26,568 bases of DNA, from positions 1 to 26,568 of the IMG/VR virus record IMGVR_UViG_2724679237_000010; one strand, written 5' to 3'. Within the stretch, counting starts at the first letter, position 1. Every line of letters starts with the position of its first letter. A program made the position numbers and the translations under genes. This document shows positions 1-18,895 of this stretch, piece after piece. Source of the DNA: a virus. Its lineage: Duplodnaviria; Heunggongvirae; Uroviricota; Caudoviricetes. The notes under the pieces were generated by a model, which saw nothing but the letters and a program-made list of their open reading frames with translations, did no database searches and had not been told where the DNA came from.

Positions 1-1044
1 TTACTCCAGAGACAACCGAACCGAAAAACCGTTTTCAGCGAGCGTCAGGCTCAGTGTGTTGATAGTCCAGTCCCGGTCCTCCTCGTTCCCGAATCCTTGT
101 GTCGTAACTTTGCATTCTGCTGTCAGCGACACTAAATCGAGCGTCGCTGGCGTCGTGTACGTCATAGAGAACTCTTTTTTAGCTGCACCGCCCTTGAGCC
201 CTGGTGCAGCTTCTTTCGCTGCGTCGAGCGACGGCTCAACTGCCGGCCATTCAATGACAGGATCGCCGCCACTACCTGTCCGCAATTCTTTGATCTGCCC
301 AGTTGCTGTGTCGTGATATTTAATCAGATACGTCGGCTCCGGATTTTCGCCACCACCGCCACTATCACCGCTTTGTCCATTTCTCGAATAGCCCCAGCTG
401 GAGTTATCACGACGAGTTAGCGTGTAGTGCTGGAGCGGAGCACCGCTAACTGATTCGCCCGCGCCGCGCGGCAGGAATATCCAGTACCCTCCTGCGGGTT
501 TGCTCACCGCATCGAATCGTGTTGCTAGTCTCGACATCAGGTGCATATCTGACTCACCGACTTGATCGAGCTGCGTGATAATGTTGTCTGCAAACCGCTT
601 TGATACGCGAGGTTTAAGCCCGTTATCGCTCGCTATTGTCGCAACGATATCGCTGACAGTGACGTCGCTCCAGGAGCGAGTCTTTTTGCTCTGAACTGTC
701 GGAGAGCCTTTTGACGCGTTCATCGGAGCCGCTTTTGCTGTGAAATCAACTACCCGGGGTTCACCGCCACTGCTCGCACCATCAACGATGTATATACCTT
801 TATCAATTATCTGATTACCGAAACCGAGCCCAAGACTGATTTTCACACCACGGGCCGGAATTTTCAGTGTTTCAGAAACGATAGCTACGCGTAATTCGTC
901 TGTCTGTTTACTCGAACCGCCATAATCTGTGAGCGTGATATTGATCAAACCTTTTCTTATTTTTCCCGTGATGTTTTCATTATCAGCAGATATATAAAAA
1001 TTGGGCTTCCATGCTTCCACGCCAGTATTTACGTAATCACTCAT
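1..1044 (-). CDS. Phage tail protein D (P2 gpD / late control gene D family)
   Basis: 347-aa ORF, last gene of the tail block after U and X, in the same order as P2-like phages and R-type pyocins. Size and position fit gpD; no alignment was computed. Stop codon sits at bases 1-3, so the gene is complete in the window. Confidence 0.8.
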   Translation of the reverse strand: MSDYVNTGVEAWKPNFYISADNENITGKIRKGLINITLTDYGGSSKQTDELRVAIVSETLKIPARGVKISLGLGFGNQIIDKGIYIVDGASSGGEPRVVDFTAKAAPMNASKGSPTVQSKKTRSWSDVTVSDIVATIASDNGLKPRVSKRFADNIITQLDQVGESDMHLMSRLATRFDAVSKPAGGYWIFLPRGAGESVSGAPLQHYTLTRRDNSSWGYSRNGQSGDSGGGGENPEPTYLIKYHDTATGQIKELRTGSGGDPVIEWPAVEPSLDAAKEAAPGLKGGAAKKEFSMTYTTPATLDLVSLTAECKVTTQGFGNEEDRDWTINTLSLTLAENGFSVRLSLE

Positions 1045-1047
1045 TCA

Positions 1048-1260
1048 TCAATCCCATAATTGCGTTTCTTTTTTAACCGGTTCTGGTTCGATTTCTGGTA
1101 AAACAATTTTTTCTCCTGCACGAAACACGGCACACATATCCGTTACGCCGTAATTTAAAACCTGATATAACACGGTTTCTGTCGTTTTTGCTGTTCTCCC
1201 GTAGACTGCCAGGCAGATCTGATCGAGACGGTCACCGTCCCGTGTAGTGTATGTAATCAT
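1048..1260 (-). CDS. Phage tail protein X (P2 gpX-like, LysM-like small tail protein)
   Basis: About 70 aa, lying between U and D as in R-type pyocin clusters. I place the start at the second ATG (MITYTT...), which has a G-rich stretch about 8 nt upstream; the longest ORF begins at 1272 (MGPQM...). Confidence 0.7.
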   Translation of the reverse strand: MITYTTRDGDRLDQICLAVYGRTAKTTETVLYQVLNYGVTDMCAVFRAGEKIVLPEIEPEPVKKETQLWD

Positions 1261-1433
1261 TTGGGGCCCCATTAATTAAAAGGATTTCATAATGAGAATT
1301 AATTTTAGTAGTCGGAGAGGTATTAGTATTTCGGCGTCAAAAAAAATACCATCAGGTTGTTTTACATTTATATTCGTGGTTTTTTTTATTATTTTTATAC
1401 TTGTTAAGTGCTCTGGTAGCGCTTGATTTTGTA

Positions 1434-16250: not shown

Positions 16251-16480
16251 AATCGAACTCCCACGGGACGGCGGCGTCCCGTACTCAGACCGAGCTGTGA
16301 TTTCAGCTCGATAATGTACGTTCGGAGCTGTTCAATACTAGCCTGGGAGTACTGATAGCTCCGGTTATTTCCCGCTGAATCGCCGTGAGACAGCGATACA
16401 GTCGATCTACCCGTTAATAATTTGTGCAGGGCAATTTCAGCTTCCAGTAGCCGTTCTGTTAAAACCTCGCGCGACGTCAT
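16247..16480 (-). CDS. Head-tail connector / head completion protein (lambda gpW-like)
   Basis: 77-aa ORF between the large terminase and portal genes with ATGA overlaps. Resembles lambda gpW (..LHKLLTGRS.., ..YIIELKSQLG.. vs lambda ..LHDLMTGKR.., ..YIAELEVQTG..). Confidence 0.75.
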   Translation of the reverse strand: MTSREVLTERLLEAEIALHKLLTGRSTVSLSHGDSAGNNRSYQYSQASIEQLRTYIIELKSQLGLSTGRRRPVGVRL

Positions 16481-18441
16481 GAGCTCCCTCCGAGCATTCT
16501 GGCCATCTCCTCGAGAGACAGTTTGTTTTGTGATTTTTTCCGTTGCTCAGCGAGCGTCTCGAGATTGAGCTGGAAACGAATTTTACTGATACGTAGCGCC
16601 GCCAGCGCGTATACCCAGCAGTCGAGCGCTTCATTTCGCCGGCCCTGGTTGTCCCAGCGATAAACGACGCGACCGTTAATCAGTTTCGGGATCAAAACTT
16701 CAGAGACGAGCTGTTTTGCCTCTGTCGTGCCGAATATTTCGTCGTCGTTGGGAAAATGAATCGCACCTGGTGTCGCCGATTTAGAATCGGGTTCCAGCGG
16801 CAGGCGCATTGCGAGCAAATCTTTTGCCGTATCAGTACCGATTAACGACAAATAGACTTTATTCGCGTTACGTGTACGCGGCATATTTACGACTGGCTGA
16901 CCGTATGAGCTCGCACCTTTAATTGGAATGACCCACAGCGGACCGAGTTTCAGCGAGCGGTTATAAACGACCTGCGCATCTATACCACCGGTATCCCACG
17001 CCCAGCGACTGACGCCGATTGTGGTTCCGTCGCTGCGTCGGTATTGTTTGCGAATCACACCGTCGACGCGCTGCAGCGTGTCCTCCTCGTCGTAGCGACC
17101 GAGAACGATGGTTTTATCAATCAACCAGCACTCTTCCTCGGCTCCCCAGCCCCATACGTAACACTCGTAGCGCCCGGACGTCTGAGAGTCGATGCCACCG
17201 GTCAGATAGACAACACCGTCAGGAACCTGGCTGGCGTATTTTTCCCGGCGATTAACGAGAATATCGTGCTCCAGCTGCTCGCTGGCTACGTCGCTCCAGA
17301 GTTCGCCGAGCGTCGTGTTATGAAACGTCTTCTCCTTGAGCGGGTCGCCTTTCGCTTTCAGCCACTCGCTGACAATCTCGCCCCAGCCGTCGAGATTCAG
17401 TGAATACAGGGCGTTTATCACGATCGCAGCGTGTTTCGGTGCGCGAACGACGCCTCCGTCATGATCAAAAAAATGAATGCCGTCCCGGGTCCAGGTGCAG
17501 TCCTCGGCTATCCAGCGCCCTCCGAGCTCCATTTTTTCGAGGTCGCGATAGTAAAAATGCTCCGGGCAGTGGCAGCACTGGTAATACGCGGACGACGATT
17601 TCGCCTCATTGGTCTGTAAGCTGTTATCCCATTTGAGGCCGTATTCGATACCGTCGAGACCAAATACCAGGGTCTGCTCCTCGCTACAATGCGGACACTT
17701 CAGGTAAAAACGAAATGTCAGATCAGCAGCGTCTTCCAACATTTCTATATGGCTTTTGCCGGTAACGGTCGGCGTCGAACCGAAAATTGCTTTTGGGTAC
17801 GCTGCACCTTTAATTCGAACGAGCGCCAGCTCGATGGGCGAGCCCTCGCCCTTGCCTTTTTTTACAACCTCCAGCGGCCAGCCGTCGACTTCGTCACCCT
17901 CGACAACCTGTTTCGTCAGTCGCCGGAAATTTCCTGGTGTACTCGCGCCACGAAAATCGATAATCGCCCCGTTCATCTCTTTACGCTGGAGATTGTTACG
18001 CTCGTTGCTTTTATCCCAGTCGGGGAAAATTTTCTGAATCACCGGCATTTCGGCGATAGCGGGGTCAACCTCGTCGGCGACAAATCCATCCGATTCGTCA
18101 TCGATAGGCTGATAGACCACGGCACTACGTTTTTTGTGCTCAGCGAAATAGAGCAGCGCCGCGACGAGTATTTTTGTATAACCGAGACGAGCTGATTTGC
18201 GAACAGACACTATTTTTATCGCGTCGTTTGTCATCATATTCAACATCACAATCTGGACCGGCTGAGTCGTCCAGTGACCCGCAATATGGCTGGAGCCTTC
18301 GGGGAGGTAAAAATATTTATCAGCCCACTCAACCCCCGTCATCGGTATCGTCACGCGCAAGGGATTCAACCCTGTCGAGATCGCGTTCGATATCGCTGAC
18401 ATCGTAATCGCTGAAGTCGACTCGTATGTCTGCCAGTTCAT
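16477..18441 (-). CDS. Terminase large subunit (lambda gpA family)
   Basis: 654-aa ORF with many lambda gpA-like blocks: VEWADKYFYLP, KSARLGYTK, YLTGGIDSQ, VWGWG, IPIKGASSYGQPV.NMPR.RN, GTDTAKD, NEALDCWVYALAALRIS. The start may lie at an internal Met, since the longest ORF overlaps the small-subunit gene by 113 nt. Confidence 0.92.
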   Translation of the reverse strand: MNWQTYESTSAITMSAISNAISTGLNPLRVTIPMTGVEWADKYFYLPEGSSHIAGHWTTQPVQIVMLNMMTNDAIKIVSVRKSARLGYTKILVAALLYFAEHKKRSAVVYQPIDDESDGFVADEVDPAIAEMPVIQKIFPDWDKSNERNNLQRKEMNGAIIDFRGASTPGNFRRLTKQVVEGDEVDGWPLEVVKKGKGEGSPIELALVRIKGAAYPKAIFGSTPTVTGKSHIEMLEDAADLTFRFYLKCPHCSEEQTLVFGLDGIEYGLKWDNSLQTNEAKSSSAYYQCCHCPEHFYYRDLEKMELGGRWIAEDCTWTRDGIHFFDHDGGVVRAPKHAAIVINALYSLNLDGWGEIVSEWLKAKGDPLKEKTFHNTTLGELWSDVASEQLEHDILVNRREKYASQVPDGVVYLTGGIDSQTSGRYECYVWGWGAEEECWLIDKTIVLGRYDEEDTLQRVDGVIRKQYRRSDGTTIGVSRWAWDTGGIDAQVVYNRSLKLGPLWVIPIKGASSYGQPVVNMPRTRNANKVYLSLIGTDTAKDLLAMRLPLEPDSKSATPGAIHFPNDDEIFGTTEAKQLVSEVLIPKLINGRVVYRWDNQGRRNEALDCWVYALAALRISKIRFQLNLETLAEQRKKSQNKLSLEEMARMLGGSS

Positions 18442-18895
18442 TCAGGGCTATCGCCAGCTCCTCTCGTAATACACTGCTCGCCTCCTGCGGCATTTCAGGC
18501 CACACCTTTTTCAATCGTGGTGGCCACGACTCGACGCGGGTACGTAATTCAACGGCGACGCGAGATACAGCTACGCTGATTAATTCAATTGGCGCGTAGC
18601 GTTTAGCAAGAATGCGACGTTTTACTCGTGCCATCAGGATTCGCTCCTGTCGTTCCTCATTTTTCAGCCACTGCTCGCGATTTTTTTCGGGAGAATTGTC
18701 CCCCACTTCCGGTTCGTCAGTACCAATTGTGTCGCGTCTATTACTCCGGAGATAATGAATATAAAAATGGCGCCAGGCATCAAGGTCCCAATCGCCACGT
18801 CCCTGTGGGACTGGAGCTCCCGGAAGTTTTGCAAGATCGCGCAGACGACGATCAGATAGCAGTAAATGTGCTGCGACCTCAGCCTGACTTGCCAT
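18329..18895 (-). CDS. Terminase small subunit (Nu1-like)
   Basis: 188-aa ORF directly upstream of the large subunit. N-terminal HTH-like segment (AEVAAHLLLSDRRLRDLAKLPGAPV) resembles the Nu1 N-terminus; GAGGA lies 7 nt before the ATG. Confidence 0.65.
   Translation of the reverse strand: MASQAEVAAHLLLSDRRLRDLAKLPGAPVPQGRGDWDLDAWRHFYIHYLRSNRRDTIGTDEPEVGDNSPEKNREQWLKNEERQERILMARVKRRILAKRYAPIELISVAVSRVAVELRTRVESWPPRLKKVWPEMPQEASSVLREELAIALNELADIRVDFSDYDVSDIERDLDRVESLARDDTDDGG

Follow-up and report, generated by a model that had tools for sequence, protein, structure and literature searches.

The contractile tail of the R2-type pyocin of Pseudomonas aeruginosa is encoded by a cluster bearing the locus tags PA0615-PA0628, in which the collar gene is followed by V, W, J, I, fiber, sheath, tube, E, T, U, X and D, and which contains no head genes. 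In bacteriophage lambda the genes A, W, B, C, D, E, FI and FII are followed by Z and the tail terminator, and then by V, G, T, H, M, L, K, I and J. Phage P2 has separate V and F tail operons, carries X next to L, uses Ogr for late control, and encodes gpR and gpS. In HAP1-like myoviruses, homology with P2 is confined to the V and F tail operons (Lavigne et al. 2009, PMC2771037), and the tails of such phages have been linked to tailocins (Ghequire et al. 2015). Finally, the Vibrio phage Vb_VaM_Valp1 (OR500391; below, Valp1) is a cultured myovirus, for which electron microscopy (EM) revealed a head of 60 nm and a contractile tail of 90 nm (PMC11054321). Here we analyze a stretch of 26,568 nucleotides (nt) of viral DNA, positions 1 to 26,568 of the IMG/VR record IMGVR_UViG_2724679237_000010 (Caudoviricetes), which we call the window, and in particular its virion genes (positions 1-18895), where a head module of the lambda type is joined to a contractile tail.

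All long open reading frames (ORFs) of window 1-18895 are located on the minus strand, tightly packed and mostly with overlapping stop and start codons. According to the Pfam and PHROG profiles and the BLASTP comparisons with lambda and P2 proteins from which the gene identities were assigned, they encode, read from 18895 to 1, the terminase small subunit (TerS), gpA, gpW, the portal, an S49 protease, gpD, gpE, FI and FII, then two neck proteins, and then V, W, J, I, the fiber, the sheath, the tube, E, T, U, X and D. The original prediction, made from the sequence alone, had described a head block in the lambda order from Nu1 to FII, with strong similarity to lambda gpE and gpA, followed by a tail block in the order just given. 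In these respects it has held up well: Pfam or PHROG accounts for every gene of both blocks, gpE and gpA are 57% and 43% identical to their lambda counterparts in BLASTP, and Pfam places the tail genes in the sheath, tube and baseplate families.

The two halves of the operon differ in their affinities, the head being of the lambda type and the tail of the P2/R-pyocin type. Wherever BLASTP finds a match in lambda (A, W, B, C, D, E and FI), the head proteins are 33-63% identical to it, and the features of a lambda-type head module are present, i.e. a gpA terminase with both its domains, B, C, D and E in order, and gpW, FI and FII; comparison of the window proteins with P2 Q, P, O, N, M and L by BLASTP gave no match. 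On the tail side, V, W, J, I, H (N-terminus), FI, FII, U, X and D match the P2 families in BLASTP, gpE is matched to its P2 family by Pfam only, and T is assigned only by its position and PHROG. The tail proteins are nearer to those of Citrobacter phage Chris1, Hafnia phage yong2 and Valp1 (30-56% identity) than to those of P2 (26-41%). Moreover, the tail is one contiguous block with X located between U and D, which is the layout of the R-pyocin and not that of P2, where X stands beside the head genes; the separate V and F operons, the Ogr control and gpR/gpS of P2 likewise have no match in this single block. The GC content is 54.1% in the head block vs 46.6% in the tail block.

We consider it very probable that the genes of window 1-18895 form a single late operon, coding for the virion of a temperate, integrated lambdoid myovirus of an established lineage, and that this operon is composed of two old and separately exchangeable cassettes. 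The first cassette is the lambda-type packaging and head module, from TerS to FII, and the second is the contractile tail, from Z to D, in the R-pyocin gene order. The combination of a lambda-style head with a P2/pyocin-style contractile tail is real, already known and ordinary, and the lineage is a member of an established class of lambdoid/temperate myoviruses rather than a new hybrid. A tailocin, as another reading of the locus, was rejected because a complete head module from TerS to FII, which the R2 pyocin lacks, is contiguous with the tail.

The comparison with known phages that the original prediction had proposed revealed the same layout both in a cultured phage verified by EM and in a common prophage of Escherichia coli. 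In 456 of 5426 complete E. coli genomes (about 8%) we found a prophage with 92-94% identity to the window, and all of its 459 places are chromosomal. This family, represented by the prophage of strain KE26 and by the phage record vB_EcoM-705R4 (ON470624), has the same genes in the same order with that identity at the nucleotide level over nearly the whole window. It differs from the window in its intact sheath of 500 amino acids (aa) and in another C-terminal half of the fiber, followed by a separate gene for a 129-aa protein. The KE26 prophage, of about 42 kb, resides between yecA and tRNA-Leu (leuZ) and has a tyrosine integrase. Four GenBank records named 'Escherichia phage vB_EcoM-…' match the window at about 93.5%. 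The nearest set of alleles is carried by the IMG/VR contig L011, which is collinear with the window and 96.45% identical over 19,008 bp. Valp1 exhibits the identical head-to-tail layout with proteins 29-59% identical to those of the window, and because the whole layout is preserved at such a distance, we regard the combination as old. The two lineages differ in other respects. Valp1 is a telomere phage with a protelomerase and ParAB, maintained as a linear plasmid prophage, whereas the E. coli lineage integrates at tRNA-Leu (no protelomerase is annotated in the KE26 prophage, and the window itself stops short of that end). Valp1 also contains PAAR and other extra genes between V and W, and its protease and capsid protein are only 34% identical to those of the window.

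The arrangement of the region suggests how the operon may be expressed. Upstream of TerS, in the right-hand part of the window, the Pfam scan identified the lambda-type antiterminator Q, YbcO, DUF1367, two holins and an endolysin, and a scan for promoters and terminators found no strong signal of either type and no regulatory break at the head-tail junction. Since Q lies upstream and no strong promoter or terminator occurs at the junction, head and tail genes would be expressed together by Q-dependent read-through, unlike the Ogr-controlled late operons of P2.

The head-tail boundary and the two neck genes

The original prediction located the junction of the two blocks in two unassigned genes at 9880-11093, which it supposed to adapt a lambda-type connector to a contractile tail. 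These genes do encode neck proteins of the head-tail interface, but the boundary between the modules does not fall inside them, as both belong to the tail cassette. The boundary is FII|Z, i.e. the 30-nt spacer at about 11094-11123, where the head and tail genes of lambda itself meet. We place it there because of the co-occurrence of Z and the collar with the tail, the breakpoint of homology in an uncultured relative, a step in GC content, and the pattern of gene overlaps.

With respect to co-occurrence, Z-like and collar-like genes are found directly upstream of V in Valp1, Chris1, yong2 and the Jilinvirus vB_EcoM_ECO1230-10 (ECO1230-10), and, according to annotation and hhalign, also in the Hapunavirus members phiHAP-1 and VP882. 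The heads linked to this same cassette consist of an S49 protease and Phage_cap_E in Valp1, a ClpP-Phage_capsid_4 fusion in Chris1 and in the uncultured relative (contig L024), and an S78-HK97-capsid fusion in ECO1230-10. The Hapunavirus and Jilinvirus phages, Chris1 and yong2 all possess fused protease-capsid heads, not the C, D and E genes of lambda, and in Chris1 and yong2 the block from sheath to D precedes W, J, I and the fiber. Z and the collar travel with the contractile tail, whatever the type of head.

A scan of IMG/VR with the collar profile yielded 21 loci. In the L024 contig, Z, the collar and the tail proteins are 64-90% identical to those of the window, whereas the terminase large subunit (TerL) is only 28% and the portal 23% identical, and C, D and E have no match. 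At the DNA level the homology amounts to 71% over 2.15 kb (Z to V) and begins at window 11006, at the 5' end of Z, from where it extends through the tail. The GC content drops at the boundary from 52.8% in FII to 48.5% in Z, and among FI, FII, Z, the collar and V, the FII-Z junction is the only one without an overlap, while Z, the collar and V overlap one another.

Neither neck gene has a Pfam match of its own, and in every matching record that was inspected, those of the phage 705R4 and of E. coli KE26, both are called 'hypothetical'. The 178-aa protein (9880-10416, minus strand) belongs to a PHROG with no assigned function. However, a family profile built from 11 homologues and compared with the sequences of the PDB matched the R2-pyocin collar (6u5f_A, 'Collar PA0615') with E=3.8e-4 and nearly over the full length (residues 25-180 vs 23-167). 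The structure prediction suggested for this protein proved informative: a Foldseek search with the AlphaFold2 (AF2) model found a terminator fold, with 6u5f_A at the top (6.9e-9), and also the Mu tail terminator 9khy (3.6e-7), lambda gpU (2e-4 to 6e-4), neck-region chains of the Pseudomonas phages Pa193 and E217, and the diffocin and monocin caps. Because of the PDB-profile match and these Foldseek matches, the protein can be assigned as a collar/tail terminator of the PA0615 type with the gpU fold, the R2-pyocin collar PA0615 being its closest solved relative. The P2 terminator gpR has been described as homologous to PA0615 and as bridging the head-to-tail adaptor and the top ring of the sheath (bioRxiv 10.64898/2026.09.14.750843). 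In our hhalign comparisons, similarity to the P2 proteins was not detectable for either neck family (E=0.34 for the 178-aa family vs gpR, E=0.27 for the 226-aa family vs gpS).

The tail cassette opens with the gene of the 226-aa protein (10413-11093, minus strand), which the PHROG profiles assign to phrog_27 (2.7e-41), annotated 'tail completion or Neck1 protein'. Of the 29 homologues aligned with it, three match the Pfam family Minor_tail_Z (lambda gpZ, PF06763), the best with E=2.1e-12, and comparison of its family with gp07 of phiHAP-1, annotated as Neck1, gave an hhalign probability of 95.7% (E=8.8e-9). Judging from these profiles, it is probably a tail-completion protein of the gpZ/Neck1 family, with a link to lambda gpZ that is transitive only, through intermediates. 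For the 178-aa family, hhalign against phiHAP-1 gp08 gave E=0.016, which is merely suggestive, so that the link of the Halomonas phage phiHAP-1 to the window is strong for Z and weak for the collar. Both neck proteins are common to Vibrio, Citrobacter and Hafnia myoviruses according to BLAST; in Pseudomonas, Burkholderia, Ralstonia, Aeromonas and others, homologues could be detected for the Z-like protein only. Thus the two genes can no longer be called unassigned, and a reading of them as novel adaptors is not supported, as they represent known neck families that are present with other head types as well.

In position and structure, the two neck genes correspond to Z and U of lambda. The functional collinearity of the window with lambda (A, W, B, C, D, E, FI, FII, Z and then the terminator) extends through Z and U, although TerS, FII and Z of the window are not detectable by BLAST against lambda. 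Beyond the terminator the two part, as lambda continues with V, G, T, H, M, L, K, I and J and the window with the baseplate, sheath and tube set.

Alternative readings

The most serious alternative concerns the state of this particular copy. The original prediction listed the sheath as one gene of the tail block; its identity and place are correct, but it is not a single intact gene here. In alignment with its relatives, the sheath gene (4432-5933, minus strand) is split by a deletion of 1 nt into a 191-aa ORF (5358-5933), which matches phrog_23, and a 339-aa ORF (4432-5451), which contains the Pfam sheath domains. The base was lost from a run of eight A residues at 5413-5420 (minus strand), where the closest sheath alleles, in the contigs L010 (98.5% identical) and L011 (94.5%), have nine and the frame stays open for about 500 aa. 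It is possible, although clearly less probable than not, that the frameshift is genuine and that the window comes from a decaying cryptic prophage, whose heads could package DNA but which would make no functional contractile tails. As read, the copy has no full-length sheath unless the base call is wrong. On the other hand, miscalls in homopolymers are a common sequencing error, and every virion ORF in the window except the sheath is full length relative to its homologues. A second copy with eight A residues was not found in the genome, metagenome or viral collections, in which only the L010 and L011 contigs with nine were matched, and in complete E. coli genomes the sheath allele of the window is absent at high identity. 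The run of eight A residues thus has no recurrence in these collections. The loss of one A may be either a homopolymer sequencing error or an inactivating mutation, which are indistinguishable from the present sequences.

It is tempting to go further and regard the Z-collar-contractile-tail cassette as a promiscuous 'universal tail', which among fairly close relatives (about 71% DNA identity over the stretch from Z to V) is attached to no fewer than three head systems of different structure, i.e. the lambda-type S49/gpE, the ClpP-capsid_4 fusion and the S78-HK97 fusion. In the three head types compared, the cassette is always joined immediately downstream of a small head-closure gene of the Hc1/FII type. 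In this strong form we find the idea unlikely. Less likely again is that the A run of the sheath gene, with eight or nine residues, is prone to slippage and would switch tail production on and off.

Still less probable, and largely refuted, is a recent recombination between lambda and P2, in which the genes at 9880-11093 would be novel, lineage-specific adaptors between a lambda connector and a contractile tail. Such an origin would agree with the head proteins, which are up to 63% identical to lambda, with the assignment of the tail proteins to P2 families, and with the 'hypothetical' status of the junction genes, which lack Pfam matches of their own. It is difficult to reconcile with tail proteins only 26-41% identical to P2 and nearer to Chris1, yong2 and Valp1, with junction proteins that fall into the recognizable PA0615 collar and gpZ/Neck1 families, are common to Vibrio, Citrobacter and Hafnia myoviruses and show no detectable similarity to P2 gpR and gpS, and with the presence of the entire layout in Valp1 at 29-59% identity.

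As to a chimeric contig, with head and tail blocks from different replicons joined by mis-assembly as the GC contrast between them might suggest, this is hardly credible and is rejected by independent assemblies, since in 442 complete E. coli chromosomes 80% or more of the window is found at a single collinear site, several IMG/VR contigs, including L011, also span the junction, and the genes across it are tightly spaced or overlapping.

A number of points nonetheless weigh against our interpretation of the region as the late operon of a temperate myovirus with the boundary at FII|Z. No virion of the E. coli lineage has been purified, and the matching GenBank phage records are PHASTER predictions rather than purified virions. 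The sheath of this copy is frameshifted. The DNA-level evidence for the boundary comes from one uncultured relative, L024, and is complemented by protein-level comparisons with cultured phages. The model of the 178-aa protein has a predicted local distance difference test (pLDDT) score of only 67, and its C-terminal 35 residues, which are expected to reach the sheath, are outside the model. For the 226-aa protein, the direct hhalign comparison with lambda gpZ was not significant (E=0.15), the Foldseek search found nothing, and its family profile found nothing relevant among the PDB sequences. The physical contact between FII and the collar is likewise a proposal, to which we return below.

Genes of the two cassettes and their neighbors

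All genes of the two cassettes lie on the minus strand. At the head of the operon, TerS (18329-18895, in the Nu1 position) matches phrog_57 (1.3e-39); it has no Pfam match, its BLASTP match to lambda Nu1 is marginal (E=0.013 over 51 aa), and the label of a putative Nu1 is taken only from its position and from the terminase small subunit family phrog_57. The large subunit of the gpA family (16477-18441) contains GpA_nuclease (PF20454, 4e-64) and GpA_ATPase (PF05876, 4e-45) domains. It is followed by the gpW head-tail adaptor (16247-16480; Pfam gpW 2e-15, 33% identical to lambda W), the portal of the lambda gpB family (14679-16250; Phage_portal_2 1.8e-90), the gpC-like S49 prohead protease/scaffold (13369-14679; Peptidase_S49 3e-38), the head decoration protein gpD (13040-13372; Pfam HDPD 1.9e-7, 35% to lambda D), the major capsid protein gpE (11947-12981; Phage_cap_E 2.8e-58), and the DNA-packaging protein FI (11501-11914; Packaging_FI 2.6e-9, phrog_92 2e-29, 34% to lambda FI). 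The last gene of the head module encodes the head closure/head-tail joining protein FII, or Hc1 (11124-11504), identified by Phage_attach (9.4e-9) and by phrog_82 head closure Hc1 (1.3e-22), with no BLASTP match to lambda FII. A search for the lambda cosN 12-mer gave one match with two mismatches, which is at the level of chance.

The head module is itself mosaic. In its first part (16477-18895), TerS and TerL are nearer to Valp1 (57% and 59% identity) than to lambda (not significant and 43%). In the second (11947-16250), the portal, protease and capsid protein are nearer to lambda (63%, 56% and 57%) than to Valp1 (48%, 34% and 34%). Of the head genes, D and FI vary most among close relatives (75-100%). 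The gene of the major capsid protein is flanked on the minus strand by GC-rich hairpins with T-runs, one just upstream of its start (13001-13020) and one right after its stop (11931-11948), which could act as partial terminators or as mRNA stabilizers that raise the expression of the capsid protein.

Downstream of the collar, the tail begins with baseplate genes: the spike gpV (8997-9899; Phage_base_V 3e-12, 35% to P2 V), the wedge proteins gpW/gp25 (8653-9042; GPW_gp25 1e-15, 37% to P2 W) and gpJ (7736-8656; Baseplate_J 1e-20, 41% to P2 J), and gpI (7107-7733; Tail_P2_I 8e-37, 34% to P2 I). Next is the tail fiber, of the tail-collar type (5945-7114), which has a gpH-type N-terminus and a swapped C-terminal half (Phage_tail_fib 4.5e-31, phrog_5075 1.6e-138). 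This C-terminal half (window 5945-6500) bears no relation to the corresponding part of the fiber in the E. coli prophages with 92-94% identity, in which a separate 129-aa gene, missing from the window, is located between fiber and sheath (7655-8044 of vB_EcoM-705R4). The N-terminal half of this 129-aa protein and residues 316-384 of the window fiber share 33% identity (E=8e-11), which suggests that the C-terminal region may be a fused or truncated fiber-assembly module. The L011 contig carries the fiber type of the window at 98% identity.

The sheath, described above, contains an extra domain of about 100 aa (window about 5450-5850, residues about 40-170) that is absent from P2 FI (500 vs 396 aa). 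Its N-terminal part varies from 42% to 95% identity among otherwise near-identical relatives, and its C-terminal part from 77% to 99%. The extra domain looks like a surface-exposed hypervariable or recombining domain. The relatives have lesions of their own: Z is split into two ORFs in L024 (9277-9992), D is split in vB_EcoM-705R4 (1724-2768), and in E. coli KE26 the annotated TerS is cut short (30728-31033 of the stretch compared). Many copies of the E. coli prophage family may be decaying.

Behind the sheath lie the tail tube (3902-4414; Phage_tube 6e-22) and the assembly chaperone gpE (3608-3889; Phage_TAC_7 1.7e-15). As in E/E' of P2, the -1 frame after gpE is open for 56 codons, from 3647 to 3477, across the start of T, and this putative E' extension has in common with the extension ORF of yong2 the motif D-[ML]-P-[YF]-x-x-F…E-V. 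There is no canonical slippery heptamer of the type X XXY YYZ, the sole candidate being GTA AAG CCC CCG AAA G at 3640-3625; the E/E' frameshift is putative. The tape-measure protein T (1859-3499) matches phrog_3654 (8.8e-262), lies between E and U, and is 32-35% identical to its positional equivalents in Valp1, Chris1 and yong2. The cassette ends with the tube initiator gpU (1434-1862; Phage_P2_GpU 3e-31), the LysM-like tail protein gpX (1048-1272; Phage_tail_X 5.6e-16, 40% to P2 X) and the baseplate hub gpD (1-1044; phrog_52 4.7e-93, Phage_GPD at 3e-5, below the cut-off, and 26% to P2 D over 370 aa).

Outside the operon, the region between the lysis genes and TerS contains a 113-aa ORF on the plus strand (19778-20119) with a weak match to the Lar zinc ribbon (PF14354, 1.8e-5, below the cut-off), and two more small plus-strand ORFs (19249-19714) without matches; together they look like a moron-type insert. 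At the right-hand end, 25465-26568 on the plus strand, there is a metallopeptidase of the ImmA/IrrE family (Peptidase_M78 8e-18), whose best PADLOC match is 'capP' (2.4e-25), followed by a 201-aa ORF without a match that reaches the last base of the window and is listed as complete by the ORF tool. This segment may be a protease-controlled regulatory or defense module of the prophage.

Proposed virion assembly and the exchange of modules

From what was observed, namely the gene identities, their order and homologies, the boundary, the distribution and the frameshift, one can picture how such a virion would be put together. Heads would be built on the portal from gpE and gpD with the gpC protease/scaffold, would be filled by TerS and TerL with the help of FI, and their portal would be closed by gpW and then by FII. 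Tail assembly would start from the baseplate of D, V, W, J and I together with U and X. The tape measure, chaperoned by E and the -1 frameshift product E', would set the length to which tube and sheath polymerize. A hexamer of the 178-aa collar could then cap the tube and the last ring of the sheath and offer a docking face for the FII ring, as gpU does in lambda and gpR in P2, and the 226-aa protein of the gpZ family could complete the top of the tail (tube, tape measure and end of the DNA). Head and tail would thus be built separately and joined through FII and the collar. Both this contact and the location of Z in the virion are our proposals.

If the contact between Hc1 and the collar is the sole determinant of compatibility, these phages would constitute a natural system, tractable by genetics, for the study of the rules of head-tail docking, and chimeric phages might be constructed by a swap at FII|Z. 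Names can now be given to two genes that have so far been 'hypothetical' in the phage and E. coli records examined, namely a tail-completion protein of the gpZ family and a collar/terminator of the PA0615 type, with the reservations given above for each. For a widespread prophage family, which includes prophages of ST131-type clinical strains, FII|Z can be given as the point of exchange between head and tail. The locus reveals neither a virion of a new kind nor a novel mechanism; it illustrates the classical modular evolution of phages, in which one tail cassette is combined with several types of head.

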